Program-made: the position numbers and the translations under genes
Notes under the pieces: generated by a model
Databases searched by the model: none
Seen by the model: the letters and a program-made list of their open reading frames with translations, nothing else
Told to the model about the DNA's origin: nothing
In this document: piece by piece, positions 1 through 37,723 of the stretch
How positions within the stretch are numbered: the stretch's first letter is position 1
Layout: each line of letters opens with the position of its first letter
Assembly: GCA_964507055.1 (NCBI GenBank)
Contig: CAZDOJ010000001.1
Coordinates: 593,313 to 657,312, forward strand
DNA length: 64,000 nucleotides
From: an uncultured Gammaproteobacteria bacterium
Lineage (GTDB): Bacteria > Patescibacteriota > Microgenomatia > Levybacterales > UBA12049
Direction of reading: 5' to 3'

Positions 1-272
1 TTTGTTTCATCACTATTTGTGAGGAAGAGAATGTGCTTTGCAGGTTTTTTGAGGAATGTCTTAACTTGATCCATGATCTGCACTCCAGTCATAATTGGCA
101 AAAGTACATCCAAAAGAATTAAATCCCATCCGCCAATCTTGATCTTATCAAGGGCCTCTTTACCATCTGCGGCTGTAGCGACATCATACCCAGCACTAGT
201 AAGTGTTTCATGATAAATATCACGCAAGAACATATCATCTTCTACTAAAAGTATTTTCGTTTTATTATCCAT
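1..272 (-). CDS. Response regulator receiver (REC) domain protein, 5' portion only (gene continues past the window start). Translates as MDNKTKILLVEDDMFLRDIYHETLTSAGYDVATAADGKEALDKI...DLILLDVLLPIMTGV
   Basis: Manual translation of the reverse complement from ATG at 272. It shows a CheY-like fold signature: acidic pocket DD, phospho-acceptor D in LILLD, and the T/K region. Confidence 0.6.
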   Translation of the reverse strand, partial: MDNKTKILLVEDDMFLRDIYHETLTSAGYDVATAADGKEALDKIKIGGWDLILLDVLLPIMTGVQIMDQVKTFLKKPAKHILFLTNSDET

Positions 273-309
273 AATTCTATTCTATCAATAATCTCTTCAA
301 AACAAAAGA

Positions 310-330
310 AAACCACCGCTGGGTGGTTTT
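310..330 (-). terminator. Rho-independent terminator downstream of pilin copy A (stem ccacc/ggtgg, loop gctg, U-run on the minus strand)
   Basis: Inverted repeat aaccaccgctgggtggttttt read directly. It lies just 3' of the minus-strand pilin stop at 353. Confidence 0.5.
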
Positions 331-352
331 TCAAATTCTATGCATATTAGTG

Positions 353-835
353 TTATCGAGTTACCTGGATTGGAGGAGTATATGCACTTGGTGCTGATAC
401 AGTAATTCTATTATTAGTATCTCGTGTTATTGTATAGCCTGTGTTCCATGAGCCTGCACATTCGCCAGCCTCGACACCTGCTTGGTCATTGAGAGTTGGA
501 TCCATTGGAAGTGCTGGCATATAACTTGGTACTAACTGTGCACACAATGCACCTAATGTAGCACCACTTTGTAATGGGGTCGCTGTATCGACTGTCAAAG
601 CTTGCACTGTCGCAGGAAGTTGACCTGTATTGGATGCAGTGTATTGTCCAATTGCATTGAGGACTTGTGTCACATCACTTCTTCGTTTTGTGTCATTTGC
701 TTGTCCAAATTGTCTTGCTGGATTGATAGCGATAAGTGTAATTGCAAGAAGAATTGCGAGAATACCGATAACTACGAGCAATTCGATGAGGGTGAAACCT
801 TTTTGATCTTTATTAAATATTTGTCGGACAGTCAT
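353..835 (-). CDS. Type IV pilin, major-pilin candidate (copy A), with a prepilin N-terminal cleavage/methylation motif
   Basis: N-terminus MTVRQIFNKDQKGFTLIELLVVIGILAILLAI carries the class III signal (G|FTLIE). A hydrophobic alpha1 helix follows, and the C-terminal region has two Cys (D-region-like disulfide). Confidence 0.8.
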   Translation of the reverse strand: MTVRQIFNKDQKGFTLIELLVVIGILAILLAITLIAINPARQFGQANDTKRRSDVTQVLNAIGQYTASNTGQLPATVQALTVDTATPLQSGATLGALCAQLVPSYMPALPMDPTLNDQAGVEAGECAGSWNTGYTITRDTNNRITVSAPSAYTPPIQVTR

Positions 836-1000
836 GTTTTGTTTTGATTAGAATTAATCTTGATCTGTATCTATTATTGTCAGAGACTCTATATCCTGTC
901 AATATGTCTTAATAGGCCTAAAATGTAATCAAATAGATCAGTTTTATTTTTATTAAGACTTCTGAAGCTATAAGAACTATCCCTATTATAATGATCTATT

Positions 1001-1324
1001 TTGATCGTCTTGACACAGACTCAGCTTTTCATTCAATATAGATATATAATGTTAAAACCTACGAAACATCACGAGCCACTTAGTAGTGCAAAGGCAATTA
1101 TCGGACTCCTCGTTCTTGGTATAGCATTTGTACTCTTTTATAAGTTTATTACGAATCAAGAATTCTTCTTTGATGATCCAGAAGCACTCCGTAATTATGT
1201 AATCTTTACCATTACAGTTAGTGGATTCTTAATCGGTCTTCTCTATCTTACAAGTCAGACAAAACATAAAGCGAAAACAAAAGCTGCTCCAAAAACGAAA
1301 GCTGCAAAAAAGAAGAAAAAATAA
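1001..1324 (+). CDS. Hypothetical small membrane protein with a lysine-rich C-terminal tail (a likely true start is the internal MLKPTK at 1049)
   Basis: ORF with two predicted TM helices and a KAKTKAAPKTKAAKKKKK tail. It is the only plus-strand ORF inside the minus-strand pilus locus, so its coding status is uncertain. Confidence 0.35.
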   Translation: MIVLTQTQLFIQYRYIMLKPTKHHEPLSSAKAIIGLLVLGIAFVLFYKFITNQEFFFDDPEALRNYVIFTITVSGFLIGLLYLTSQTKHKAKTKAAPKTKAAKKKKK

Positions 1325-1347
1325 ACCTTCTTTCCTCAATAAACTCT

Positions 1348-1971
1348 TTATTCCCTTATCATTGCAACAACTCGTACTGGAGCTCCATCTGCTTTCAATT
1401 TTACTGGTAGAGCAATTACTTCAAATGAATCATGCGTTAGCAAACTTCCAAGATTTGTGAGATTCTCTACTATATAAATTTCGTTGGTCAAAAGAATTTT
1501 GTGGACAATCCATGGTTCATTTGCATCCGGTCCTGACATATCCATCCCAATTCCTTTTACATTATGTTCCACCATTATACGTGCGAAATCCTCCGCAATA
1601 ATTGGTGTTTTATGGAAGTATTCTTCTATACCGTATTTTTCTCCAAAACCTGTGTAGAGAAGAACTATAGTATCTGATGATAGTTCTTTGTTACTTAATA
1701 CAGACCCATCAATAATATCTTTACCGCGTACGTCGATAAGTATGCCTTTTCCTATAAATTTTTCTATAGGAAGAGCATCAATTGTCTTCCCTCCTTCAAT
1801 CATATGCAATGGAGCATCCATATGGGTACCCACGTGCATTACGGTAGTCAATTTATGATCATTGAAAGAATCATTATCTATGTGAGCGACTTGTTCCAAA
1901 GTAGCCGTAGGATCTCCTGGAAAAGAAGGCATACTATCAGTAAATGTATGCGTTAAGTCAATAATTGTCAT
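1348..1971 (-). CDS. Cyclase-family protein (kynurenine formamidase / arylformamidase-like)
   Basis: Contains the cyclase-family metal-binding motif HxGTHxDxPxH (HVGTHMDAPLH). Length is 207 aa. Confidence 0.7.
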   Translation of the reverse strand: MTIIDLTHTFTDSMPSFPGDPTATLEQVAHIDNDSFNDHKLTTVMHVGTHMDAPLHMIEGGKTIDALPIEKFIGKGILIDVRGKDIIDGSVLSNKELSSDTIVLLYTGFGEKYGIEEYFHKTPIIAEDFARIMVEHNVKGIGMDMSGPDANEPWIVHKILLTNEIYIVENLTNLGSLLTHDSFEVIALPVKLKADGAPVRVVAMIRE

Positions 1972-2016
1972 AAAAAAAAGTATAACAAATGATTATGAGA
2001 GATTTGTAAAGAAGAC

Positions 2017-2493
2017 TTAGCGAGTTACTTGGATTGGGCCAGAGTAAGCACTTGGTGCTGATACTGTAATTCTATTATTTGCGTCTTTTGCAATCGTGTA
2101 ACCAGTATTCCAAGCTCCAGCACAATCTGCTGCTTCAACTCCTGCTTGATCATTCAATGAAGGATCCATTGGAAGTGCTGGCATATAACTTGGTACTAAC
2201 TGTGCACAAAGATTTGGGAAAGAAGTACTATTTAGATTAGCTGATCCACTTGCGAGAGCTTGGACTTCTGGAGGCAGTTGACCTGTATTGGATGCTGTAT
2301 ATTGTCCAATAGCATTGAGAACTTGTGTCACATCACTTCTTCGCTTTGTGTCATTTGCTTGTCCAAATTGTCTTGCTGGATTGATAGCGATAAGTGTAAT
2401 TGCAAGAAGAATTGCGAGAATACCGATAACTACGAGTAATTCGATGAGGGTAAAACCTTTTTGATCTTTATTAAATATTTGTCGGACAGTCAT
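2017..2493 (-). CDS. Type IV pilin paralog (copy B). The N-terminal 74 aa are identical to copy A, the core is divergent, and the C-terminus is conserved.
   Basis: MTVRQIFNKDQKGFTLIELLVVIG... is identical to copy A through ...SNTGQLP, then diverges. The C-terminal motif LCAQLVPSYMPALPMDP...NNRITVSAPSAY is conserved. Confidence 0.8.
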   Translation of the reverse strand: MTVRQIFNKDQKGFTLIELLVVIGILAILLAITLIAINPARQFGQANDTKRRSDVTQVLNAIGQYTASNTGQLPPEVQALASGSANLNSTSFPNLCAQLVPSYMPALPMDPSLNDQAGVEAADCAGAWNTGYTIAKDANNRITVSAPSAYSGPIQVTR

Positions 2494-2595
2494 GTTCTTT
2501 TTTGATCAATGTAATCTTGATCTGTATTCATTATTGCTGGTTTACTCAACCATTGTCAATAGAGCAAAAAACGAAAAATATTCGAATAGATGTGG

Positions 2596-3735
2596 CTATT
2601 TCCCGAGCACTATTGAAACATCAATTGTTCCCTCTTGTCTCTCCTGTACAGTTACATCAGGTTTTATTTTGCGGACTTCATCAAGAACTGCATTGCGTGC
2701 TGTTTGACTCACTGCTCCTGAGAAAGAAACTATTGTACTTGTTGTCGACACACCAGTCTTTACCTGTGTTGTAACTGACTTAAACTCATATGCTTCAAGC
2801 GATGTTCGTAAAGCTTGAGAAGAACTTGATGCTGAAGCACTAACAATTTGTACTGAAAAATCGTCGAATCGAGCTGCTTCTTCAGTGGGTGAAACAGGTG
2901 CAACAGTATTTGCTACTTGGGGCATAACCGTCGGTTGCGTGGATGATTGCGGTGATGGAGCTGGTTGTATACTCTGCATATACACAAGTATCAATACAAC
3001 AACTAAGATTACAAAAATACCTATCATTGCAATTAATCGTTTCTTATTTGTCTTTGGAGGTTCCTTTCCTAATTCTTCCTGAACCACATCAACAGAATCA
3101 TCGCTTTCTGCTTTTTTTTGTGGTGTAAAAGCGGTTTGTGTTTTAATGTCATATTGCTTTAATCCAGCGGCTTTCTGCAATGTAGCATTTACCATACCGA
3201 GGTCCATTACAGGCTTTGAGCTTAAACCATTACCGAGAACCATTCCGGGAAATACTGAGGAAACAGTAAAGCCAAGTTTCTCAAATCCCTTTTCTATGCT
3301 GGTATACAAATCTTGGTTTACTGCACAAACACGTATACCATTTTTGAGAGGAAACGTCCGACTAACAACATTTTCATATGGGACATGTTCAATAAAAAGA
3401 TCAATCTGTGGTTTAAGGTCCTCAAGCGTAACTTTTGGTGTAACTGGGGTCGCGGGCTGTCCAGGTTTTGTAGGTTGTGATGCAGGTTGACTTGGGATAA
3501 CAAAATCTTTGACAAAATATGCATTGTCACTGAGAACAATAATAAAATTAATCGGAGCAATTTTACCATTTGTCACAAAAATCTTTATTTGGTCTTGCAA
3601 GGCATCATCATCAAGAACATCTAAATCACGTACAATATTAGGAGGGAAACGATATTCCACAACAGAACGCAAATACGGTGAATATAGTTGAAATTTATCT
3701 TTTTGTACGTAGATTACTCCTGTTTTTACTGTCAT
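2596..3735 (-). CDS. Pilus-assembly-associated bitopic membrane protein (PilM/PilN/PilO-like role inferred from context only)
   Basis: 379 aa with a roughly 215-aa cytoplasmic N-domain, a single TM (LIAMIGIFVILVVVLILVY) and a Pro/Thr-rich extracytoplasmic C-domain. It is tightly packed in the pilus operon. Confidence 0.45.
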   Translation of the reverse strand: MTVKTGVIYVQKDKFQLYSPYLRSVVEYRFPPNIVRDLDVLDDDALQDQIKIFVTNGKIAPINFIIVLSDNAYFVKDFVIPSQPASQPTKPGQPATPVTPKVTLEDLKPQIDLFIEHVPYENVVSRTFPLKNGIRVCAVNQDLYTSIEKGFEKLGFTVSSVFPGMVLGNGLSSKPVMDLGMVNATLQKAAGLKQYDIKTQTAFTPQKKAESDDSVDVVQEELGKEPPKTNKKRLIAMIGIFVILVVVLILVYMQSIQPAPSPQSSTQPTVMPQVANTVAPVSPTEEAARFDDFSVQIVSASASSSSQALRTSLEAYEFKSVTTQVKTGVSTTSTIVSFSGAVSQTARNAVLDEVRKIKPDVTVQERQEGTIDVSIVLGK

Positions 3736-3736
3736 A

Positions 3737-4165
3737 TTAAAAAACTTCTCTTTCCGATGTAACCGTCAATAAATTATTAACATAAGTTGCTTGAACTTCA
3801 ACAGTCCTTTTATAGTTACCAACCGTTCCTGTTGATGTAATTATATAGGGACTCACTGAGGTACCATTCCCTCCTACCACTATAACTGCTTCTCCTTGCC
3901 CAATTGTCAAAGTCTCACCTGCGTAAGAAGGTGGTGGAGTTCTCAGAACTCTTAATAATGCGTTTTCAGATCCACTCTGTGCTACTTGATACGCAAGTTC
4001 TCCTTGTTGCTGCCGTGTTCCGCTATTGGAATTTACCAAAATCATAACGATTGCCGCTGAAGTAATCGTCAACCCAATAATCATAAAGAACAATAGCGTG
4101 ATGAGTGCCTGTCCCTTTTGATATGAGAAAGATACATAATTTATTTGTCTATCAATTCTCATCAT
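3737..4165 (-). CDS. Minor pilin / pseudopilin-like protein lacking Glu5 (PilX/GspK-like)
   Basis: N-terminus ...QKGQALITLLFFMIIGLTITSAAIV has a prepilin-like G|Q cleavage context followed by a hydrophobic helix. It is 142 aa. Its stop overlaps the start of the next gene. Confidence 0.5.
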   Translation of the reverse strand: MMRIDRQINYVSFSYQKGQALITLLFFMIIGLTITSAAIVMILVNSNSGTRQQQGELAYQVAQSGSENALLRVLRTPPPSYAGETLTIGQGEAVIVVGGNGTSVSPYIITSTGTVGNYKRTVEVQATYVNNLLTVTSEREVF

Positions 4166-4716
4166 TATTGTCTAGCTAAAGTTGTTTGGAATGATCTCGA
4201 TTCATCTCCTGACGGTTGTTGGATTCTACTAACGACAGTGAAGTTTACTCGAATCGTATCGTTATTCGTTCCCGCCCCAATTCTTTGGAACGTCAAGCCA
4301 GTAAGATATGAATTTACACCATTTAGGACATTCACTTCTCCGGTAGTGCCATTGGTCAAACGGAGATTGCCATTACCGTCTAGGCTATATGTATAGTTTA
4401 TAGAATTTACCCGTATTTGCAAAGTGGAGGTCTGAGATCCCGGAGATGCTGGAATTACGATAGCATCATTTGTATTAATTGATTTCATATCATAAAACAT
4501 CTTTCCCATGATATATCTGCCATCTTGATCAACGGTTGATGTAGCTTCAGATTCTAATTGTACTTCAACTATCTGTCCAAACATCGTACTCATGATGCCA
4601 ACAAGGATAGAGAGGATCCCGACATAGAGTACAAGTTCAATAAGCGTAAACCCTTTTTGTCGTTTCTTCCGAGCAGCCTTTGCAGCAAAAAACTTCTGAA
4701 AAAATTTCATATCCAT
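4165..4716 (-). CDS. Pseudopilin / minor pilin with a prepilin-type N-terminal cleavage/methylation domain
   Basis: KKRQKGFTLIELVLYVGILSILV carries the canonical G|FTLIE motif. It is 183 aa. Confidence 0.7.
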   Translation of the reverse strand: MDMKFFQKFFAAKAARKKRQKGFTLIELVLYVGILSILVGIMSTMFGQIVEVQLESEATSTVDQDGRYIMGKMFYDMKSINTNDAIVIPASPGSQTSTLQIRVNSINYTYSLDGNGNLRLTNGTTGEVNVLNGVNSYLTGLTFQRIGAGTNNDTIRVNFTVVSRIQQPSGDESRSFQTTLARQ

Positions 4717-4772
4717 ACCAAGCGTACCTATTTAAAGATTTATATTCAAGAGGAAATCTAATGAAGAGTAAA

Positions 4773-6560
4773 CTACGATCCGCCTGAGCCACTACCTGAA
4801 TTGCCTGATTGATTTTCTTGTAAGGCTTTAATCAAAGTGGAGATATCTGATGTTAGGATATCGTATCCTTCTTTTGTTATGCTTTTCCCTTTTTGTTTAT
4901 TTAGTTCTAATTGCATCGCTTTCAAGGTGGCAACTGCAAGTTTATTTCCTAAAGGCTGCTTATTACTTAGTGTTGCTTTTTCAGCAAGCTCAGTTTGGAG
5001 TAAAAAAGCAGTATAGAAGATGACATTTTTAATTTGTTTTTGTTTATAAAGTTGTTTAATATCATTTTTAAGAAGAGCAAATGTTACTTCGCGAAAAAGT
5101 TCAGTCTTAATATTATTTATATTTCCTTTATCGTACCTGAGCTTATAAGAAGTCACCGCATCTGGAGTTAAAGTACCTGTGTAAGAAGCAGCTTTCATTT
5201 CTCCTTCTTTAGTAAAAATGTACTCATCCAGCTGAAAATTTGGATCTATTGAAGAATAAACTTCGACAGTATAGTTATCTGATTCAGGTTTTGCAAAATA
5301 GAATACTTTAACTGCTGAGGTATTTGTATTGAACGGTTCATCAATAACTTGTGCAGGACTATATTCCAAATAGCTTTCCCCATACGTCCTTCCATTATCG
5401 TCTCTTACTGTTACCTCTGCATCCTTATCTACCACATAGACAATATAGGAAAGATCCGTATGTGAAGGCTCATACCTTCGAACTGACGAAGCCTGATTTG
5501 CATATGATGCCAAGGTAGTTCTATTAAATAAAGGATCATTGATCTCAAAAGTATTACCTATTTTGCCTTTTGCAACTACAAAATGCATACCAGGAGCATC
5601 CACTTGTAATATATTAGGAATTCCTTGATTTAGATCATTTGTAACTTTATTAGTATCAAAATAGATATTAGAATCATATTCTAAAGCGTCATAGTTAAAA
5701 TTTGGATTCTGAACTCTAGATTCTTTAGCTAAACGTCCAAGAGTAGGCCATATAACTCCAAGATTACGATTATAGCCTTTATTATTTTTTAGCCATGTAT
5801 TCAAAGTACCTGGAGTAATCTCTGTTCCGTTTGGCAATTTATCTATTTTGTGATACTTCAGTACCATTGCAAGTGATGAGGTAGCGCAACCACACTGTGC
5901 CATAGTTCTGCCACAACCATATTGAATTTGATCCCCAGCAGCAAAGACATCACTCTCCCATATGGGATTATTATCGTTATATGGAGCAGTCCCTTGTTTA
6001 AATGAAGGTACATTTAAACTAATTCCACCAGAAGGCGGCGTAACAATAGGTTTAGGCGTTACTGATGGAGATATTGGATTAAAGTCGGTATCAATAGCTG
6101 TAGTTAAGAATGGTTCAATGTCATCATCTTTTGTTTTTGAAACTATATAGAGCGTATCTATTGTTTTATTATTTGCACATTTATTTATGAAAGTAAAGTT
6201 AATTATTTGACGGCCTTCTCGCTCATATACTGAAGGATCTAAAAGTTTTCGTATTTCTAATGGTGGAAGCTTCTTAGTATTACATTCAGAATCGAATATA
6301 AACTTTTTTCCTGTATATAGATTAGATATTTCAAGAATATCTCCTACACTATTATTGCCAGGGATATGCGGATCATTATTAACAAAAACATATATATTTT
6401 CCGGTGGATTGTTAACATTTACACTAACTGTAGCTATTGTCTCTGCTGGTGTATTTTCAGGGATACTGAAACTACTTATAACACTGGCAAGACCAGTGGC
6501 ATATGCTGTAGAGTAAGCTGAAAAGAATACTAAAAGAAAGAAAATAAATAATTTAAGCAT
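4773..6560 (-). CDS. Secreted multi-domain protein with a C39-like (Peptidase_C39_2-type) papain-fold cysteine peptidase domain
   Basis: Has a signal peptide (MLKLFIFFLLVFFSAYSTAYA). The motif QYGCGRTMAQCGCATSSLAMVL supplies the Cys, and a downstream PGMHFVVAKG supplies the His, as expected for C39_2. The C-terminus has a Gly/Ser-rich tail. Confidence 0.6.
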   Translation of the reverse strand: MLKLFIFFLLVFFSAYSTAYATGLASVISSFSIPENTPAETIATVSVNVNNPPENIYVFVNNDPHIPGNNSVGDILEISNLYTGKKFIFDSECNTKKLPPLEIRKLLDPSVYEREGRQIINFTFINKCANNKTIDTLYIVSKTKDDDIEPFLTTAIDTDFNPISPSVTPKPIVTPPSGGISLNVPSFKQGTAPYNDNNPIWESDVFAAGDQIQYGCGRTMAQCGCATSSLAMVLKYHKIDKLPNGTEITPGTLNTWLKNNKGYNRNLGVIWPTLGRLAKESRVQNPNFNYDALEYDSNIYFDTNKVTNDLNQGIPNILQVDAPGMHFVVAKGKIGNTFEINDPLFNRTTLASYANQASSVRRYEPSHTDLSYIVYVVDKDAEVTVRDDNGRTYGESYLEYSPAQVIDEPFNTNTSAVKVFYFAKPESDNYTVEVYSSIDPNFQLDEYIFTKEGEMKAASYTGTLTPDAVTSYKLRYDKGNINNIKTELFREVTFALLKNDIKQLYKQKQIKNVIFYTAFLLQTELAEKATLSNKQPLGNKLAVATLKAMQLELNKQKGKSITKEGYDILTSDISTLIKALQENQSGNSGSGSGGS

Positions 6561-6614
6561 ACTTAATATATTATTATTATACTAATGTATTCTTATATTA
6601 TATGTCAATAACTT

Positions 6615-9092
6615 TTATTGTGAGTAATTCCAAGTAATATCTTGTAAGACAGGAGTTACTGTTTGATCTGTTAAAGACTCAAGTGTCACTTTATATCTAA
6701 AACAGCGCTCTGGATTAACAAAGGCCCCACTCATAAAGCTTCCAAATGGTATTTTATCAGAAATAACTGTTGTTACAGGAGTATAATAAGAAGTGTCACT
6801 CCCATCCGGCCCAATATATGTGTAACCCGAAGTTGGACAACTACCATTGGATAGTCCTTTTAACCCTACTTGAATTTTAACAGATGTATTTGTAGGCTGT
6901 ATAATATTCGCAAGCAGTCGATTAAATGCTCTTAAAATTGTGCTTGGCTCCACCGAAGCCGTATCAAATACCTGAGATTCAAACGTCCCACTTGGCATAA
7001 AAATTGCATTGTCCGGTCCACCTTGGATAATCTTTAACTCATTTGCAGTCGTATTTGCTACCATATATACATAGTTATCATAATCCGCTTCAGATACTGA
7101 AGTCAGATCATTAAACCCTTGATTGAAATCTACCCCTGAACAATACGTTGGTGTCGCCTCTGTCTCAGTATTGAGAACCTGATATTCTTGAGCATTTCCT
7201 CCACCAGATATACCATCTTTTCCTACCAGTACAGCACGTTGCCCATTAAGTACAGTCAGAGATCGCCGTGGATATAATTCTGAAGCACCAGAAGGTGCAG
7301 GGGAAGCTCCATTATAAAAACCTGACGAAGGTGTGCTGCTTCCTGTAAGAAATGTTGGCGAAGTTTTAGAAGTTGTGTTAAGGATATAAAATTGCTTACT
7401 ATCACTTCCTCCATTTGAGGAAATATATGCCCTACTACCATCTGCATTGGAGAATACTGAATTAGAGGCTTCTTCTGTACCTGATCCTGTATTAAAATCT
7501 TTACTCCCGCTTACTTTCCATGCTGTTGCTCCACCAGAAATACGTCCACAACTATTTCCGGTTAAGGAACTTCCACTTGTAGGTGCTGTCGTTACGTTGA
7601 CGATCTCAAATTCAGGATTTGTTACGCCTCCCACAGCGACATACACATATGTATTGTTTCCAACTTTAACTGGAAAAATATCATTTGTGGCAAGCAATTC
7701 AATGTTTCCTCCATCAGAACAATCGTTGTGGATTGGAGAGGTCGTATCTCCCCAAGAAGTTCCTGACTGTCCAGAATCATACTTCGCAGCTGTTCCTGGC
7801 GAACCTGGTCGACATTCATAACCATCAAGTTCGATCCTACAGCCGTACATATCAAGTCCATTTGATGTTGATTTACTATCGATATTTGCCAAATTAAACA
7901 CGTATAGATATCCACCTGAAGCAACATATCCACGATCCCCTAATACCGCGACGGATGAAGCACCATAACTATAAGGCGATTGATCATTACTGGAACTTGC
8001 AATACCGTTATATCTTCTAGTATTAAAAAAAGTTTTGTATTTATAGAGTTTATTAACTGGATCTTGATACTCTCCACTTGTTGTATTGTCATTGGCACTA
8101 TTCCCATCATTTACCCAAACAACAATAACTTCTTTATCAGGAAGATTTGTTCCGAGAATTGCATACGTGTTTCCACCAGAGGACTTATAATATTTCACAT
8201 CGGTTGTTGAAAAATTATTATCAAGTCCTGTACCTGATTGTGGAGCATATCCTGATGCATACTCTGAAGCATTCATCGTAAATTTGCCTCTTAGTGTTGT
8301 CGCAGGCGTGTCAGTATTTGCAGTTACATTTACATAAGCTAATTTTGCTGAGCTTGTAGCATAAGGTGCTGTTGCTACGAATACATCATTAGGTTGAGCC
8401 GTTGTAGCACTTGCCGTAGCAGCAACAGCAACAGGCGGTCCATCAGGCAAATCAATTGTAGCTTCTCCTCCTAAATCATTCAAAGCAAAGGCGGGCGTAC
8501 ACCATTTGGCTTTATTGTTATTTGCCAATTTTACTTCCCCACCGGAATCATTTGTCACTTGAATATTTACTCCAGTTCCTGCGTCAAATTGTGCTTTTGT
8601 TGTATGAGAGGCAGTAAGATTACTTGTTCTCGTCAAAAAGATTGTTGAGGTAATCGATGAAGGAATTGGTCTTGTCCAAGAAACAGTAATATCTGCTTTT
8701 CTAGTCGAGGGATCAAGTGTATTTCCTGCAGAAGTTGAAGCAATTGCTCCGGCTGATGTTCTATAAACACTTGATAAAATAACCTGTTGCGTAAATCCTG
8801 CAGAAGTTGAAGCAGAACCTGAGGATAATGACCATCTGTTACTGACAATCACAGGATGATAGGGAGATCCGATAGTTAAGCCTGAAAGTGTTGCCCAATC
8901 ACTATCTCTGACACTTTTGACGGCAGTTTCTGTTTCTTTCATCAGTGCAATTGCCTGGAGACGCTGCTCCTGCTGCGGTTTTCCATCACGTGACGCGAGA
9001 AGTCCTGAAACCAATCCTGGCAAGATAAGTGCTGCCAAACCAATGGTTAAAACCAACTCAATAAGTAATTGTCCTCGTTGCAATTTTTTCAT
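6615..9092 (-). CDS. Giant pilin-like protein (825 aa) with a prepilin-type N-terminus. It is a candidate tip adhesin or minor pilin.
   Basis: The N-terminus MKKLQRGQLLIELVLTIGLAALILPGL fits G|QLLIE with Glu5. The remainder is a large Ser/Thr/Gly/Asn-rich, beta-type region. Confidence 0.65.
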   Translation of the reverse strand: MKKLQRGQLLIELVLTIGLAALILPGLVSGLLASRDGKPQQEQRLQAIALMKETETAVKSVRDSDWATLSGLTIGSPYHPVIVSNRWSLSSGSASTSAGFTQQVILSSVYRTSAGAIASTSAGNTLDPSTRKADITVSWTRPIPSSITSTIFLTRTSNLTASHTTKAQFDAGTGVNIQVTNDSGGEVKLANNNKAKWCTPAFALNDLGGEATIDLPDGPPVAVAATASATTAQPNDVFVATAPYATSSAKLAYVNVTANTDTPATTLRGKFTMNASEYASGYAPQSGTGLDNNFSTTDVKYYKSSGGNTYAILGTNLPDKEVIVVWVNDGNSANDNTTSGEYQDPVNKLYKYKTFFNTRRYNGIASSSNDQSPYSYGASSVAVLGDRGYVASGGYLYVFNLANIDSKSTSNGLDMYGCRIELDGYECRPGSPGTAAKYDSGQSGTSWGDTTSPIHNDCSDGGNIELLATNDIFPVKVGNNTYVYVAVGGVTNPEFEIVNVTTAPTSGSSLTGNSCGRISGGATAWKVSGSKDFNTGSGTEEASNSVFSNADGSRAYISSNGGSDSKQFYILNTTSKTSPTFLTGSSTPSSGFYNGASPAPSGASELYPRRSLTVLNGQRAVLVGKDGISGGGNAQEYQVLNTETEATPTYCSGVDFNQGFNDLTSVSEADYDNYVYMVANTTANELKIIQGGPDNAIFMPSGTFESQVFDTASVEPSTILRAFNRLLANIIQPTNTSVKIQVGLKGLSNGSCPTSGYTYIGPDGSDTSYYTPVTTVISDKIPFGSFMSGAFVNPERCFRYKVTLESLTDQTVTPVLQDITWNYSQ

Positions 9093-9093
9093 A

Positions 9094-9594
9094 CTAATTT
9101 ATACTTGATATGACTCCATATCTATTTAATCGTATCACCTTTTGTTCATTCGTCATGCTATCGCGTACCGTAATAATAGCGGATGTACTTGCATAATTTG
9201 TGACTTCGCCGCTTCCTTTCGCAAATGTTATTGAAGAACTTGCTGAAGCAATAGTGATAGTCAAAGTATTTTGATATGTAACCGCAAAGTTAGCCGACGC
9301 ACTTGCAACATATGTACCTTTATATAAAATGTATCGATGATTTGTAGAATCAAAGCGGATACCATAATTATCAATTACGCCCGTACCACTTGTGTCACCT
9401 GTCATTGCTTTCGCCTGCTGATCTTTTAAATCTGCGACAAATGTATTAAAAGTCGAATTCAATTGGGATTTATTTTGAAAACTAAAAAGGTTTACTGTCG
9501 CGATGCTTGCTAGCACAGCAAAAATCGACATGACGAGAAGAAACTCAACAAGTGTAAATCCTTTTTGATTTGAATGATTGAAAAGATTTTTCAT
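9094..9594 (-). CDS. Pseudopilin (GspH/FimT-like) with a prepilin-type N-terminal domain
   Basis: NQKGFTLVEFLLVMSIFAVLASIA motif. It is 166 aa. Confidence 0.7.
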   Translation of the reverse strand: MKNLFNHSNQKGFTLVEFLLVMSIFAVLASIATVNLFSFQNKSQLNSTFNTFVADLKDQQAKAMTGDTSGTGVIDNYGIRFDSTNHRYILYKGTYVASASANFAVTYQNTLTITIASASSSITFAKGSGEVTNYASTSAIITVRDSMTNEQKVIRLNRYGVISSIN

Positions 9595-9602
9595 CGTACA
9601 TT

Positions 9603-10655
9603 TTACCTCGCTCCTACTTGGCCGATTAATTGGTAAATTGGTGCGATAATTGCCATCATCATTCCTCCGATTAATACACCAACGCCTACAAGCATAATAG
9701 GTTCTATGAGAGCAGTGAGGGTTTTTAATGTACTTGAGACTTGATAATCGAGATATTCTGAAACATCCAGCATCGCTTTGTCCAAAGATCCACTACGCTC
9801 ACCTGCTTCAATAATTTTGATCATAATTGGAGGAATCACCTTTTTACTATCGCGTAATCCCTCAGACAACTTCTTCCCACCAAACACAACAATTTTTGTA
9901 TGTTTGATCGCATTTTGAATATTCTTCTTGATAACCACATCCTGCGTTAATTCCAAGGCTGTAGTAATCGGAATACCTGCTGTGAGAAGTAGATACAAAC
10001 TTCTGGTAAATCTTGTTAAATCAATTTGCTGCGTCAAAAGTGAAATCAATGGCAAAGAAGTAAGTGCTCGAACAATTGCCATGCGATTTTGTTTGTAAAC
10101 AAAAATTACAGATGCAATCATAATTGTGATAACAGCAATAATTGGAATTGTATATGTAAGTAATGCATTGGAAAGAAATATCATAATCTGTGTAGGCAGT
10201 GGCAATTCTACGTTCAATCGAAGGAATACGGTCGCAATTCGAGGCACAACCACAACTAATATAACCACCATTACAAGGATAAAAACAATAACAATAAATA
10301 TTGGATAAATGAGTGCTGATTTGATCTTATCGTTAAATTCTATTTCTTTTCGTATACTGAGCTTTAAATCTTCAAGTGCTGTATCAAGTGTACCCGAATC
10401 TTCGGAGGCTTTAATAATATTGACTGTAACCGGATCAAATATTTTGGGGAACTTTTGAAATGTTGTATACATATGCTGTCCCTGTGCCAAGTCAGAACGC
10501 ATCTCCATAAGCAATTTTTTGGGTCCGCCTTTTGCATCTTCCAATAATGACTCTACCGTTTCAAGAATAGGAATACCTGATGAAAGCATCGTATGAAGAT
10601 TACTAACTAATGCAATTTTATCGCTCGCAGAAAGTGATGTATTATATTTTTTCAT
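9603..10655 (-). CDS. pilC: Type IV pilus inner-membrane platform protein PilC (GspF/T2SS-F family)
   Basis: Two T2SSF-like repeats and three TM segments. It sits immediately downstream of pilB. Confidence 0.85.
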   Translation of the reverse strand: MKKYNTSLSASDKIALVSNLHTMLSSGIPILETVESLLEDAKGGPKKLLMEMRSDLAQGQHMYTTFQKFPKIFDPVTVNIIKASEDSGTLDTALEDLKLSIRKEIEFNDKIKSALIYPIFIVIVFILVMVVILVVVVPRIATVFLRLNVELPLPTQIMIFLSNALLTYTIPIIAVITIMIASVIFVYKQNRMAIVRALTSLPLISLLTQQIDLTRFTRSLYLLLTAGIPITTALELTQDVVIKKNIQNAIKHTKIVVFGGKKLSEGLRDSKKVIPPIMIKIIEAGERSGSLDKAMLDVSEYLDYQVSSTLKTLTALIEPIMLVGVGVLIGGMMMAIIAPIYQLIGQVGAR

Positions 10656-10658
10656 AGA

Positions 10659-12344
10659 CTAAAGTGCTTCAATCTTTGTAACACGGAGTACTTCTTCAAT
10701 TGTAGTTTGACCTGTTACGACTTTGCTCAAACCATCATCAAGCATGGTTGTCATACCACCTTCAACCGCTTTTTTAAGAATAAGATCAGAGTCATTATTT
10801 TCAGTAATTAATTTTTTAATATCATTGTTTACTTCTAATACTTCAAAGATACCTAGTCGACCGGAATAACCAGTATTGTGACAAACTTCACAACCTTTAC
10901 CTTTGTAAATACGTATATCTTTTTTTGTACCAAAATGTTTTTTAATTGCTTCTTTTGGCAAATTCAAAATCAATTGATCTGAAGTAACATCCTGTGATCC
11001 TTTACACATTTCGCAAATCTTACGAACAAGTCTTTGTGCGATGATAACATTTACGGTAGAGGCAACGAGAAATGGTTCAACATTCATATCTGTTAAACGT
11101 GGTAACGCACCAGAAGCATCATTGGTATGAAGTGTAGACAAAACTAAATGCCCTGTAAGTGCTGCGTTTACAGCAATTCCAGCCGTCTCAGAATCACGAA
11201 TTTCTCCGACAAGAATCACATTAGGATCTTGACGAAGGATTGACCGTAAACCTGAAGCAAAAGTTAAATTTGTTTTAGCATTTGTCTGAATCTGATTAAT
11301 ACCCTTCAATCGATATTCAACTGGATCTTCAATTGTTGTGATATTTTTCTCACGTGAATTAATAATCTTCAACACTGAATAGATAGAAGTTGATTTACCT
11401 GAACCTGTTGGACCGGTTGAGAGGATTAAGCCAAAAGATTTTTTGAAGGCATTGGTTACTTTCTCTAAATCTTTTTGACTCATACCAAGATCTGCCAAGG
11501 AAAATTGTCTGAAATGAGAAGCAAGCAAGCGCATAACAATCTTCTCACCATAAATAACTGGCAGGATAGAGACACGCAAATCTAAGTTCTCTTCTTCAAG
11601 TTCAATACGAATTTTTCCATCCTGTGGTGCCATGTGCTCATCTGTACGCAAACTTGCGAGCACTTTTATACGCGTGGATATCTGATCATGGAGTTTCTTA
11701 GGAAGGGCTAATACATCATGCAAAATACCATCCACACGGAAACGAACCAATGTATCCTTTTCTTCCGGTTCGATATGAATATCAGAAGCACGATCTTGAT
11801 ATGCGTATTGAATAATCAAATCTACAATCTTGGCAATCGGGACATCAATAGAAGCAGTTTTACCTGCAGTACGAACTTGCTCAGAAACAAGCGTATCAAA
11901 AGTCTTTTGCAAATCTCTTCGATACAGCCAAAGTTTGTTATAGATATCACGTTCTGTTGCCAAATACGCAAACACTTTTTGCCCGGTTTTCTTGGCGATC
12001 ATTTCCTGAATCAACGTATTTTTCGGATCAACCATCGCAACTTTAATACCATCTTTATCACGGGCGAAAGGAATTGCTTTATATTTACGGGCCAACCGTT
12101 CGGGAATAATACGAAATGCCTCTTCAGGGATAGAGATCTTTCCAAGTACAACAAATGGGATTTTAAACGCATCAGAGATAAGGACACCGAGGTTTTCGTC
12201 TGTGACAACATCTTTCTCAATTAACGCATCTGTGAGCGTAATATCAGAATTCTTTGCATACTCAAGGACTTCTTCAAGTTTTTTTTGATCGGCGATTTTA
12301 ACATTAAGAAGAAGCGTCTTTAACTGATCATCTGTAATCAACAT
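10659..12344 (-). CDS. pilB: Type IV pilus assembly ATPase PilB (GspE family)
   Basis: Walker A GPTGSGKST, Asp and His boxes, and a tetracysteine Zn motif (CEMCKGS...CEVCHNTG). It is 561 aa. Confidence 0.9.
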   Translation of the reverse strand: MLITDDQLKTLLLNVKIADQKKLEEVLEYAKNSDITLTDALIEKDVVTDENLGVLISDAFKIPFVVLGKISIPEEAFRIIPERLARKYKAIPFARDKDGIKVAMVDPKNTLIQEMIAKKTGQKVFAYLATERDIYNKLWLYRRDLQKTFDTLVSEQVRTAGKTASIDVPIAKIVDLIIQYAYQDRASDIHIEPEEKDTLVRFRVDGILHDVLALPKKLHDQISTRIKVLASLRTDEHMAPQDGKIRIELEEENLDLRVSILPVIYGEKIVMRLLASHFRQFSLADLGMSQKDLEKVTNAFKKSFGLILSTGPTGSGKSTSIYSVLKIINSREKNITTIEDPVEYRLKGINQIQTNAKTNLTFASGLRSILRQDPNVILVGEIRDSETAGIAVNAALTGHLVLSTLHTNDASGALPRLTDMNVEPFLVASTVNVIIAQRLVRKICEMCKGSQDVTSDQLILNLPKEAIKKHFGTKKDIRIYKGKGCEVCHNTGYSGRLGIFEVLEVNNDIKKLITENNDSDLILKKAVEGGMTTMLDDGLSKVVTGQTTIEEVLRVTKIEAL

Positions 12345-12389
12345 AGGCAGTAATTTTATTGTACAGGAAAATGAGAAAATGCAATAGAC

Positions 12390-12749
12390 TTATGCCTTAC
12401 TAACCTCGAGGATTTTTGCATATAACTTATCAAAATCAAAAAAACTTTTATTGACATATCCTTTCGCTCCAAGCAGGCGTGCTTTCTCAACATCTTTTTC
12501 TTGACCGAGCGTTGAGAATACCAATGTAGGGATATTTGTCCCTTCTTTCTTCATCGTTTCGAGAACTTCAAAACCATCCTTCTTTGGCATAATAATATCA
12601 AGTAGAACTAAATCAGGATGGAATGAAGCAATCTTTTGTAACCCTTCTTCTCCATCAGCGGCGACATCAATTTCTATTCCCTTTTCTTTTAATTTCGTGG
12701 AATAAAAACCGCGGAAAAATGTATCATCTTCAATGAGCAGAATTTTCAT
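12390..12749 (-). CDS. Standalone response regulator receiver (CheY/PilH-like) protein
   Basis: MKILLIEDDTFFRGFY...DLVLLDIIMPKKDGFEV...KGYVNK is a full REC signature. At 119 aa it has no output domain. Confidence 0.85.
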   Translation of the reverse strand: MKILLIEDDTFFRGFYSTKLKEKGIEIDVAADGEEGLQKIASFHPDLVLLDIIMPKKDGFEVLETMKKEGTNIPTLVFSTLGQEKDVEKARLLGAKGYVNKSFFDFDKLYAKILEVSKA

Positions 12750-12761
12750 AAGCTATATCTA

Positions 12762-13152
12762 TTATACCTTAATAGTACTAATTGATTGCAATTCCTCAAT
12801 TTGTGGATGGAGGTCAATTTCATTGTCTTGTGTTTCAAGTTGCGTGATTGATGTCTGCATCTGTGTCACAGCTTTTACGAGAGCTTGCTGGATTTCAGGT
12901 GTAATAACAAAGCCCTCATCAATCTTGGCTTTGAAGATTCGTTCGATCAATCGGGAGAGTTGACCAATTGAGTTGTACTCCATCATCAAACTCTGACTTC
13001 CCATTGAATGTGCTGCCCGATGAATCGTTTCAACCATTTCTTTGTCATCCATATTAAGCGATCCAATACCTTGGAGTTGTTCCATATATGGTTTTGCTGA
13101 TTGAAGATAGAGAGACTTATACTTGAGTTTGTCTTCGCTTGAAAGTGGCATA
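12762..13152 (-). CDS. Hpt-like (histidine phosphotransfer) small helical protein. The ORF can extend to 13268, but the start at MPLSSEDK (13152) avoids overlap with the divergent gene.
   Basis: AAHSMGSQSLMMEYNSIGQLSRLIE resembles the Hpt HxxKG phospho-histidine helix. The assignment is tentative. Confidence 0.4.
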
Positions 13153-13226
13153 GTAATGCACTTACTATACTCAGAATTAGAAATGTTGTCAACGAATGCC
13201 TGAGGTATGATAATATTAAATATACT

Positions 13227-14417
13227 ATGCCCTCTTTTGTCGTCTGGTTTAAGGATGCTGATACACATGAATCTTCGCTTCTAGGAAAAGCTAGTAAACA
13301 TATTGGGAATCTTACACAAGCCGGGTTTCCTATCGCTCCTGGATTTATTATCACTTCAAAGGCATATCACACATTCCTTAAAGAAAATAAGCTTGATGTA
13401 AAAATCAAAAAGCTTTTAACTACCGTAAACATAGAACATCCTGAATCCGTTTATCAAGTTGCTCGACATGTACAAGATCTTATTTCACAAGCATCTATTC
13501 CGGAGAATGTAGCTCAAGAAATAAAGGATTTCTACAAACGCCTCAACACAAAAAAAGCTTCACTTGAAGCACATACAACAGTCAAGCCGTCTCATAAAAT
13601 TCTCAAACAACAAATCAGCGACTTTGAAAGTTTGGCGAAAGGATTGAAAGAAGCATGGACACAACATTTTGAACCAAATCACTTCTGGAAACGTCATGAA
13701 CATGGACATGATCATCTCGATACTGGTGTTGAAGTACTAATCCAATTGGATCTAAATGCTGTTAAGACAGGGATCATGCATACTGTAAATGTTCATAATC
13801 AGAGTAAAGACACTCTCTCCATTACTGTTAGCCATCCGCATACCTCGGATGAATATACTCTAACGAAGAAAAACCTGATGTTAATTAAACGAAAACTCTC
13901 CCACTATGGAAAAGCTCCAAAACTTACCTATCAGGAACTCTTTAAGATTGCAAAACTTGGCAAAGCAATTGAGCAACATCTCTACTTCCCGCAGCAAATC
14001 CAATGGGCAATCGTTGATGACCAAGTATATGTACTTCATACAAAACCATTTTCAGATCTTCCAAAAACGAAAAAGGAATTAAAAAAGAAACTTGCTGCAG
14101 CTCGAGGAATCTCTATAACCAAAACAATTGGCTCAGGTCCAGTAACTATTATTCAGCATGAACATGATTTAGATAAGATACATGAACATATTGTTGTAGT
14201 ATCCACGATTAAAAAAGAGCAATTAAATAAACTGAAAAAAGCAAAAGGAATTATTGCTGAAAGAGGTGATACTCATTCAGAAGTTTCAGTCCTCATCAGA
14301 GAACTTGGGATACCCACTATTTACGGAGTTACGAACGCAACCAAGAAACTGAAAAATGGCTATGTTATCACAATTCATGCAGGTAAAGGTGAAGTTTATC
14401 TCGGTGGATTTCATTAA
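13227..14417 (+). CDS. PEP-utilising enzyme family protein: a PpsA/PPDK N-terminal nucleotide-binding domain plus a mobile phosphohistidine domain, with no C-terminal TIM-barrel
   Basis: The N-terminus LLGKASKHIGNLTQAGFPIAPGFIIT...WAIVDDQVYVLHTKP matches the PPDK_N fold. The C-terminus GSGPVTII...IAERGDTHSEVSVLIRELGIPTIYGV matches the PEP-utilisers swivel domain, with the conserved His. Confidence 0.7.
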   Translation: MPSFVVWFKDADTHESSLLGKASKHIGNLTQAGFPIAPGFIITSKAYHTFLKENKLDVKIKKLLTTVNIEHPESVYQVARHVQDLISQASIPENVAQEIKDFYKRLNTKKASLEAHTTVKPSHKILKQQISDFESLAKGLKEAWTQHFEPNHFWKRHEHGHDHLDTGVEVLIQLDLNAVKTGIMHTVNVHNQSKDTLSITVSHPHTSDEYTLTKKNLMLIKRKLSHYGKAPKLTYQELFKIAKLGKAIEQHLYFPQQIQWAIVDDQVYVLHTKPFSDLPKTKKELKKKLAAARGISITKTIGSGPVTIIQHEHDLDKIHEHIVVVSTIKKEQLNKLKKAKGIIAERGDTHSEVSVLIRELGIPTIYGVTNATKKLKNGYVITIHAGKGEVYLGGFH

Positions 14418-36883: not shown

Positions 36884-37723
36884 ATGACTGAAAATCCACT
36901 ACATAGATCTGGGGAACCAGATCAAGATCCTACGTTGCGTGAAATTAAAGATCATGCGGAATCTGTTAATCTCACATATATAAGTAATACAGATTTTAGA
37001 CGGAACCTAAAACGTCGAGAAGGACAACATCGAGTAGTATTTGAAGCAGTTAAAGAAGGTTTACTCACAATCGAGGATGGTGCATTTTTAACTGCATCGC
37101 TCCATGCCGAAACAGATATAGAAACAGAAATAGATGCCAGAACAGGTTTGTACAAAGATCACGTGGCTCAAAGAAGACTTCGAGAGGATTTACGTATGTC
37201 AGCCCTCGTGAATGAACCTGTGTCAGTCGCATTTGTCGATTTAGATGATTTTGGGAAAGTAAATAAAGCATATTCGCAAGATCATGGCGATGCGGTTCTT
37301 GGAGTGGTAGGAGAATATTTACGAAGAAATTCTCGTGCAACGGATACCGTCGGCAGAAGAGGCGGAGAAGAGATTTTGATAGTCATGCCAGGAATTGATG
37401 AAGTTACTATGCGGCAGCGGTTGTTACCTGTCTTTGATTTTATGCCAGAATATGTCGCTGATGCGATAGCGGGGACAGGTTTTGCAATAACGAATAGAAT
37501 TACTGCGAGTGTGGGAGTAGCAAATGTTTTATTTGATAGTCAGCAGCCTTCAGGTTCTGTTTTGACTGCATCTTCAAATGTACTCATTAATACAGCAGAT
37601 AGACGAATGAATATAGCAAAGGCTGCAGGGAAAAATAGAGTATTTGGGACAGCACAAGAAAAAACATGGCGTAGAGATGTATATGCACAAGGGAAAAAGG
37701 TTGTTGCTCAAAACCTTTTATAA
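36884..37723 (+). CDS. GGDEF-domain diguanylate cyclase (GGEEI active-site variant, intact RxxD I-site) with a roughly 110-aa N-terminal domain of unknown function
   Basis: AFVDLDDFGKVNKAYSQDHGDAVL...RATDTVGRRGGEEILIVM matches PleD-type spacing (RxxD-x5-GGEEx). Confidence 0.75.
   Translation: MTENPLHRSGEPDQDPTLREIKDHAESVNLTYISNTDFRRNLKRREGQHRVVFEAVKEGLLTIEDGAFLTASLHAETDIETEIDARTGLYKDHVAQRRLREDLRMSALVNEPVSVAFVDLDDFGKVNKAYSQDHGDAVLGVVGEYLRRNSRATDTVGRRGGEEILIVMPGIDEVTMRQRLLPVFDFMPEYVADAIAGTGFAITNRITASVGVANVLFDSQQPSGSVLTASSNVLINTADRRMNIAKAAGKNRVFGTAQEKTWRRDVYAQGKKVVAQNLL

Follow-up and report, generated by a model that had tools for sequence, protein, structure and literature searches.

Background

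Among the organelles through which members of the Candidate Phyla Radiation (CPR, or Patescibacteria) interact, type IV pili are the main one known; these bacteria appear to depend on other cells. In the pilE/pilS system of Neisseria, gene conversion of the RecA type takes place between pilin copies in which conserved segments flank variable ones; the donors are silent, promoterless and 5′-truncated, and conversion renews the variable region. Here we describe two neighbouring type IV pilin genes, pilA1 and pilA2, on a stretch of 64,000 nucleotides (the window; contig CAZDOJ010000001.1 of assembly GCA_964507055.1, positions 593,313 to 657,312 of the forward strand). They are probably two old paralogous isotypes of a major pilin, located in one type IV pilus cluster of a small-genome member of the Patescibacteria, with ends that are homogenised by conversion and cores that remain stable.

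The type IV pili of Streptococcus sanguinis contain multiple major pilins (PilE1/PilE2; PilA1-3), encoded by two or three full-length genes in one pil cluster (PMC11121087). The leader and α1 helix of these pilins are identical or near-identical, PilA proteins of one strain resemble each other more than they resemble those of other strains, with most differences in the globular part, and the within-strain similarity of PilA has been attributed to duplication (PMC11121087). In the Saccharibacteria, Nanosynbacter lyticus has more than one major pilin (PilA1/PilA2) and its pili have been linked to motility and to binding of the host; the two pilins of TM7x are encoded in separate loci, each with its own extrusion machinery (PMC12206443). 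Long-lasting partial concerted evolution of prokaryotic paralogues through recurrent conversion is, as the abstracts of two surveys indicate, well known (PMC6053082, PMC4632066).

Two pilin genes with a common 5′-region and divergent cores

The initial annotation placed tandem pilin genes at 353-835 and 2017-2493, and both open reading frames (ORFs) are indeed present there, each with a match to the N_methyl family PF07963 (E-values of 2.3e-10 for pilA1 and 2.5e-10 for pilA2; Table 1). In both, Gly is the last residue of the leader and F-T-L-I-E comes next, which puts Glu at position +5. The two proteins start with MTVRQIFNKDQKG followed by FTLIELL, so that the leader ends in DQKG immediately before FTLIELL, and as neighbours they are 85% identical. 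The near-identical 5′-repeat that had been noted, including the 5′-untranslated region (5′-UTR), was recovered by blastn as a direct repeat of 281 nt with 92.5% identity (599-880 versus 2257-2536; E-value 1e-116) and by a repeat search as 250 nt with 94% identity (599-848 versus 2257-2506). These two are the only copies of the repeat found by blastn in the 64-kb window, and no truncated silent pilin copies were found there.

Comparison of pilA1 with pilA2, numbered by the codons of pilA1, divides the genes into four segments. Codons 1-74 encode identical proteins and differ at 8 synonymous sites in 222 nt (96.4% identity), with a synonymous divergence (dS) of 0.17. Codons 75-97 have 49% nucleotide identity, a 2-codon indel, a saturated dS (1.2) and a non-synonymous divergence (dN) of 0.75. 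In codons 98-113 the proteins are again identical, with 1 difference in 48 nt (dS 0.10), and codons 114-160 have 74% nucleotide identity, a dN of 0.12 and a saturated dS. The divergent central segment of the initial annotation is therefore present, with the strongly divergent core extending over only ~21-23 codons. The 48-nt island at codons 98-113 is also 90-96% conserved at the nucleotide level between the window and the related chromosome L001; it could be a separate conversion patch, albeit one that is a short tract.

Evidence for gene conversion

Two contigs from other genomes, for which we use L numbers throughout, have the same organization as the window. L001 (OZ246394.1) is a syntenic chromosome with 75-79% nucleotide identity to the window over 8 kb and with the same gene order, namely pilA2 (A2), cyclase, small membrane gene, pilA1 (A1) and regulator. 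L028, a metagenome contig from the European Nucleotide Archive (ENA), shares this layout, and each of the two core types is found there at the position that it has in the window. In an alignment of the four pilin genes of the window and L001, nucleotides 1-222 have 18 sites that group the genes by genome, none that groups them by orthology and 1 with a crosswise pattern. In the core, 2 sites group by genome and 13 by orthology, and across the rest of the gene after the 5′ 222 nt, 5 group by genome and 19 by orthology, with the C-terminal part mixed. The 5′-part differs both from the rest of the gene (Fisher P = 1e-7) and from the core (Fisher P = 2e-7).

The 5′ dS is 0.17 within the window and 0.59 within L001, compared with 1.0-1.3 between genomes, and nucleotide identity in this region, 0.96 for the window pair, falls to 0.83-0.88 against L001 and L028. 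Between orthologues, dN/dS is about 0.23. As the 5′-sites and dS group the paralogues by genome, and the core groups them by orthology, we conclude that gene conversion homogenises the ends. Identity of the α1 proteins is itself expected, because α1 is near-invariant in 120 homologues, and the informative sites are therefore the synonymous and non-coding ones. In a GENECONV-style permutation, the window pair has a run of 25 concordant polymorphic sites at nt 63-144 (P = 0.0002), and the L028 pair gave P = 0.0008. Among the window, L001 and L028, identity is 70-77% between A2 cores and 30-49% between A2 and A1 cores. Along the tract, each paralogue resembles its partner in the same genome more than its orthologue elsewhere, and the signal switches between adjacent segments, a pattern expected of concerted evolution.

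Downstream of the -10 box, the 5′-UTR groups by genome and the spacer between the -35 and -10 boxes groups by orthologue, which positions the 5′-edge of the converted tract near the -10 box; the 3′-edge is near codon 75. The 3′-end of the L001 A2 gene carries A1-type states (TPP instead of SGP), and conversion therefore sometimes also reaches the 3′-end. Of the two processes that the initial annotation had offered for the layout, conversion or antigenic diversification, conversion is borne out for the ends (18:0 sites; dS of 0.17 versus 1.0-1.3), but shuffling of cores is not supported by L001 and L028.

Pilin structure and the variable loop

AlphaFold models, built from 120-sequence alignments, have a mean predicted local distance difference test (pLDDT) score of 86.8 for PilA1 and 87.8 for PilA2 and share one topology, the lollipop fold with a long N-terminal helix and a small β-sheet. 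The helix spans residues 16-68, and is followed by a short helix (75-78), a short strand (83-89), a helix at ~95-101 and three main strands within 129-159. In both models the variable segment forms the beginning of the connection between α1 and the main sheet, that is the α-β loop, which is where the initial annotation had proposed to look for it. Across the 120 homologues, residues 75-97 are the most variable stretch of the family, with an entropy of 1.94 bits compared with a mean of 0.3 bits for α1. From this topology, and by analogy with other type IV pili, the variable loop would face outward in the filament.

A conserved C-terminal disulfide region had also been described. Its two cysteines, Cys98 and Cys126, are invariant among the 120 homologues and presumably pair with each other, but the bond links the end of the α-β loop to the loop preceding the first long strand and does not form the classical C-terminal D-region. 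In a sequence search of the PDB, the best match was 5wda_A (residues 14-127, E-value 0.003), with little matched past the N-terminal helix. The NFP-type core, defined below, has a conserved N-x-T (NST, NNT or NDT) directly before N-F-P-x-L-C, at 2209-2240 in pilA2 and in about half of the 120 homologues. This sequon-like motif could be a candidate site for modification or binding.

Promoters and 5′-untranslated regions

The promoter-like sites of pilA1 and pilA2 are the joint best in the region, and their -35 and -10 boxes are conserved in relatives. They resemble promoters of the sigma-70 type, and expression of both genes is predicted. Just downstream of the -10 box, within 836-872 and 2494-2529, the 5′-UTRs of both paralogues contain the motif ATACAGATCAAGA, present in three genomes (window, L001 and L028). 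The surrounding UTR varies between genomes while the motif stays, and the motif could be a transcription start region or a regulator site. An Rfam scan of positions 1-13000 matched no RNA family, and the conserved 5′-UTR is therefore not a known riboswitch or leader. There are no GGG runs, as would be needed for a G-quadruplex, in the 100-130 nt upstream of either pilin gene.

Recurrence in related genomes

Pairs of pilin genes that enclose the small membrane gene are also present in L007, L010, L015, L020 and L029 and in the metagenome-assembled genome (MAG) to which L027, L016 and L008 belong, and L024 has three pilin genes. The order PilMNO-like gene, A2, cargo, small membrane gene, A1 and response regulator is found in the window, L001, L028, L029, L007, L010 and L015. 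The leaders are alike within a genome and different between genomes in L007, L015, L020 and the L027/L016/L008 MAG, as exemplified by MTAKMFKSPKG, which occurs twice in L007, and MK(T/R)NLPRLVKTQSSKG in L020. Synonymous identity over the α1 codons is 0.59-0.93 within nine two-copy genomes, and has a mean of 0.50 and a 95th percentile of 0.655 between genomes; seven of the nine exceed this percentile.

The cores of the family fall into two broad types, one ending in N-x-T-N-F-P-N-L-C, which includes pilA2, and one ending in T-(A/S)-L-x-x-L-C, which includes pilA1. Both types co-occur on several contigs. Some cores resemble mixtures of halves, for example that of the L029 A1 gene, in which VDTATPL is followed by NDTNFPNLC.

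The interval between the repeats behaves like a slot for variable cargo. The genes between the pilin copies include the PF04199 cyclase in the window (1348-1971), L001 and L028. In L029 (4357-5936), a PNPOx-like gene, a HIT-family gene and two small ORFs are present, and L015 (4960-7630) and L010 have longer inserts.

In MAG CAYMJR01, three short-read contigs (L027, at its end, L016 and L008) have termini that lie within the 5′-repeat of the pilin genes and overlap exactly by 55 nt, and the two pilin copies are 94% identical over 273 nt. The pilin repeat fragments short-read assemblies of this clade at this locus, and explains why its short-read MAGs break there.

No strain-level relatives of the window were found in the collections searched, by exact-protein, protein and leader-DNA searches. 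Exact-protein contig look-ups for PilA1 and PilA2 returned nothing on record, and exact or degenerate DNA scans of metagenome contigs for the shared leader gave 0 matches; the closest relatives in the protein search were 94% and 83% identical. On L004 (CAZLSZ010000094.1, positions 1-1588), a single pilin gene lies between the PilMNO-like gene and the response regulator. It has the upstream sequence of the pilA2 type, a pilA1-like (non-NFP) core and a terminator of the pilA1 type. This is exactly the layout expected from a deletion between direct repeats, but L004 comes from a different organism than L009 and proves nothing in this respect. That L004 might be a deletion variant of the population of L009, a two-copy-type contig of the same MAG, was ruled out, the two being only 75.6% identical.

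Interpretation and alternative explanations

The pair most likely consists of two old isotypes with converted ends, in a Microgenomates/Levybacteria-like member of the CPR. Each gene is preceded by its own promoter and encodes a leader of 13 residues and a complete pilin fold. Non-reciprocal homologous recombination that recurs between the copies (interlocus gene conversion), presumably RecA-dependent, probably copies the 5′-UTR, leader and α1 coding region, ~270-280 nt, from one to the other, and in some lineages also parts of the 3′-end, with the ends then evolving in concert within a genome. The tract may stop at the α-β-loop core either because ~50% identity and an indel block heteroduplex extension or because selection removes converted cores. 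Because the tract stops there, the loop types N-x-T-x-F-P-x-L-C and T-x-L-x-x-L-C would persist as orthologous alleles across species. Both pilins would also keep a common processing site and helix-helix packing interface, and one PilB/PilC machine could therefore assemble either or both, possibly into filaments with different surfaces and a role in binding to hosts or other surfaces.

Several observations weigh against this account. The three copies in L024 are not homogenised, and L010, L015 and L029, among the two-copy relatives, have two NFP-type cores; the two-isotype scheme is therefore not universal. The permutation test takes polymorphic sites as exchangeable, and the dS values are estimates from short segments, with saturation beyond the converted tracts. 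Expression of the second copy may be low, an exposed position of the loop is suggested by topology and by other pilins and not by coordinates or a filament model, and the best structural match in the PDB, PulG (1t92_A; E-value 0.28, Foldseek probability 0.80), is weak.

Programmed antigenic or phase variation of the Neisseria pilE/pilS kind, in which one locus donates the core or the repeat drives on/off deletion and new variants are frequent, would fit the conserved flanks around a variable core, the evidence for gene conversion, the several combinations of core halves across the family, such as that of the L029 A1 gene, and the L004 architecture, which is compatible with repeat-mediated deletion. 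We nevertheless regard it as unlikely. A silent-cassette system is rejected because both copies are full-length with their own promoter and leader, and there are no promoterless or 5′-truncated cassettes in the 64 kb. The cores hold their positions in three species whose 5′-segments differ by a dS of at least 1, conversion is in the constant parts and not in the variable part, the reverse of pilE/pilS, and G-runs are absent upstream of the pilin genes. The antigenic-style shuffling of cores that had been envisaged is not supported by these data, as L001 and L028 keep both core types at the same positions and the window has no silent copies. We also strongly doubt that the genes were duplicated recently and separately in each lineage and that the cores then diverged very fast: leaders that are alike within many genomes, and the genomes with two cores of the same type (L010 and L015), would be explained, but the gene order of the locus is conserved in the window, L001, L028, L029, L007, L010 and L015, orthology holds at each position for the cores, the promoter spacers and the terminator when the window, L001 and L028 are compared, and the C-terminal dS between the paralogues is saturated.

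It is very improbable that there has been no gene conversion, the 5′-identity being due to strong purifying selection, acting on DNA or mRNA through codon choice, translation initiation or mRNA structure, and to an invariant α1 protein. Between genomes, synonymous sites of these codons vary freely (dS of 1.0-1.3; mean synonymous identity 0.50), and the leader, which is not conserved, and the non-coding 5′-UTR also match within genomes only; what speaks for such selection is the near-invariance of α1 in the 120 homologues and the nucleotide conservation of the island at codons 98-113 between the window and L001 (90-96%). That one pilin gene was duplicated or mis-joined by the assembler can be almost dismissed, even though short-read MAGs do break at the repeat (L027, L016 and L008; 55-nt overlaps), as the copies differ at 8 synonymous sites in the repeat and in their cores, flanks and intervening genes, and the layout recurs in independent assemblies, including a 1.61-Mb chromosome. 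An invertible switch of the Moraxella Piv type was also considered and rejected: the repeats are direct, and the intervening genes encode the cyclase and the small membrane protein, with no recombinase.

Beyond the account of two isotypes with converted ends, it is conceivable, though doubtful, that the pair is a conserved two-surface pilus module of the Microgenomates-type CPR clade. A shared assembly cassette kept by conversion (promoter-proximal UTR, leader and α1) would drive two loop isotypes with different binding specificities, and the repeat would serve both as a switch, with deletion and re-duplication giving single-isotype variants such as L004, and as a slot that captures unrelated cargo (cyclase; PNPOx and HIT). 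If so, the range of hosts or surfaces would be tuned by copy loss or gain and not by sequence shuffling. The locus shows which part of a major pilin may differ, a loop of ~22 residues, and in which part identity between the paralogues is actively maintained. It provides a concrete hypothesis for heteropolymeric or alternative filaments, with the loop as candidate specificity determinant.

The pilus cluster and neighbouring genes

The features of the locus are listed in Table 1.

Table 1. Features of the pilin locus and adjoining pilus cluster, with positions in the window.
Feature	Position	Strand	Remarks
Single-domain response regulator downstream of pilA1	3-272	minus	Cut by window start; PF00072, E-value 1.7e-15
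Intrinsic-terminator-like hairpin 3′ of pilA1	309-330	minus	Same hairpin after the A1 gene in L001, L028 and L004
pilA1	353-835	minus	Complete major-type type IV prepilin, 160 aa; 13-aa leader; G-1/F+1/E+5; non-NFP core type
Conserved 48-nt island of pilA1	497-544	minus	Codons 98-113; begins at invariant Cys98; a further repeat of the repeat search starts here
Variable core of pilA1	545-613	minus	Codons 75-97 (ATVQALTVDTATPLQSGATLGAL); α-β loop; after helix α1 in model
Direct-repeat copy 1	599-880	minus	5′-UTR from about the -10 box plus codons 1-79 of pilA1; probable homogenised (converted) tract
Promoter-like site of pilA1	873-902	minus	TTGACA-18 nt-AATAAT; 11/12 matches
Small membrane protein, Lys-rich tail	1049-1324	plus	ORF; divergent from pilA1
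Putative cyclase/arylformamidase-family gene	1348-1971	minus	PF04199, E-value 2e-29; 45 nt downstream of pilA2
pilA2	2017-2493	minus	Complete major-type type IV prepilin, 158 aa; NFP core type (LNSTSFPNLC)
Conserved 48-nt island of pilA2	2161-2208	minus	Codons 96-111; 1 nt difference from pilA1 island
Variable core of pilA2	2209-2271	minus	Codons 75-95 (PEVQALASGSANLNSTSFPNL)
Direct-repeat copy 2	2257-2536	minus	5′-UTR plus codons 1-79 of pilA2
Promoter-like site of pilA2	2530-2559	minus	TTGACA-18 nt-AATAAT; 11/12 matches
379-aa protein, PilM/N/O-like position	2596-3735	minus	No Pfam match; immediately upstream of pilA2 in every related locus
142-aa protein, possible minor pilin	3737-4165	minus	Position conserved in relatives; no N_methyl match
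Minor pilin	4165-4716	minus	N_methyl match
595-aa protein, C39-like peptidase domain	4773-6560	minus	L001 orthologue 747 aa
825-aa protein	6615-9092	minus	No match
Pilin-like gene	9094-9594	minus	N_methyl match
PilC		same strand	Pilus cluster; T2SSF, E-value 3e-48
PilB		same strand	Pilus cluster; T2SSE, E-value 5e-129

As is typical of type IV pilins, the assembly ATPase, the platform protein and minor pilins are encoded in the same cluster as pilA1 and pilA2. PilD was not identified among the window ORFs scanned, a scan that covered part of the ORFs. A cyclase and a small membrane gene had been placed between the copies, and both are there, the former as a PF04199 match at 1348-1971 and the latter as an ORF at 1049-1324. 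The small membrane gene has tblastn matches in 12 related loci, nearly always on the opposite strand and just upstream of the regulator-proximal pilin. Its product, of ~90-110 aa with two hydrophobic segments, is also encoded in L001 (7520-7849), L028 (5509-5790) and L029 (5097-5387). It belongs to no Pfam family, with only a sub-threshold match to DUF7670, and from its position it looks like a fixed partner of the pilin locus.

Receiver-only proteins of 122-139 aa occupy the regulator position in L001, L028 and L029. The neighbours of PilB include an Hpt-domain protein and another receiver-like ORF; further along, a GGDEF protein is encoded (12549-13268, minus strand; 36884-37723, plus strand). 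Together with the receiver-only regulator, these Hpt, receiver-like and GGDEF proteins suggest that the pilus may be controlled by a phosphorelay or by cyclic di-GMP. The rest of the window, with ~37% G+C, has housekeeping genes that include those for LexA, UvrB, DnaE and ATP synthase. The contig that holds the window is apparently a chromosome of 1.32 Mb. Among named relatives, the nearest are Patescibacteria MAGs of the Levybacteria/Microgenomates type. Several Patescibacteria-like MAGs (L001, L004, L007-L010, L016, L023 and L027) are titled 'uncultured Gammaproteobacteria bacterium', which is probably a labelling error.

Comparison with described systems

The pair is an ordinary but clean case of partial concerted evolution with a sharp boundary, and reveals no new mechanism. 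As in the surveys of concerted evolution, at least as far as their abstracts describe it, part of each paralogue resembles its partner copy more than its orthologue; those abstracts are not about pilins, and the divergence island of the window pair is a short, predicted surface loop (PMC6053082, PMC4632066). The best sequence and fold matches to the globular part, although weak, are to PulG/GspG pseudopilins, from which PilA1 and PilA2 differ in the invariant pair Cys98-Cys126 and in belonging to a pilus cluster with minor pilins and large accessory proteins. N. lyticus is likewise a member of the Patescibacteria with more than one major pilin; unlike those of TM7x, however, the pilins described here neighbour a single PilB/PilC set, at least within the window.

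With Neisseria, the locus has in common a type IV pilin, gene conversion between copies and conserved segments beside variable ones. In contrast to Neisseria, both copies are full-length and look expressed, with conversion in the constant region and a variable region that stays fixed. The closest analogue is S. sanguinis, with multiple full-length major pilins in one cluster, the same α1 and a greater likeness within than between genomes, all of which are also seen here. Co-assembly is known for the S. sanguinis pilins and would be a prediction for the window pair. The pair also belongs to another phylum, has another globular domain and has unrelated genes between its copies. Unlike the account given for S. 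sanguinis, the segment-by-segment test of the window pair shows conversion of the ends around a stable, orthologous core.

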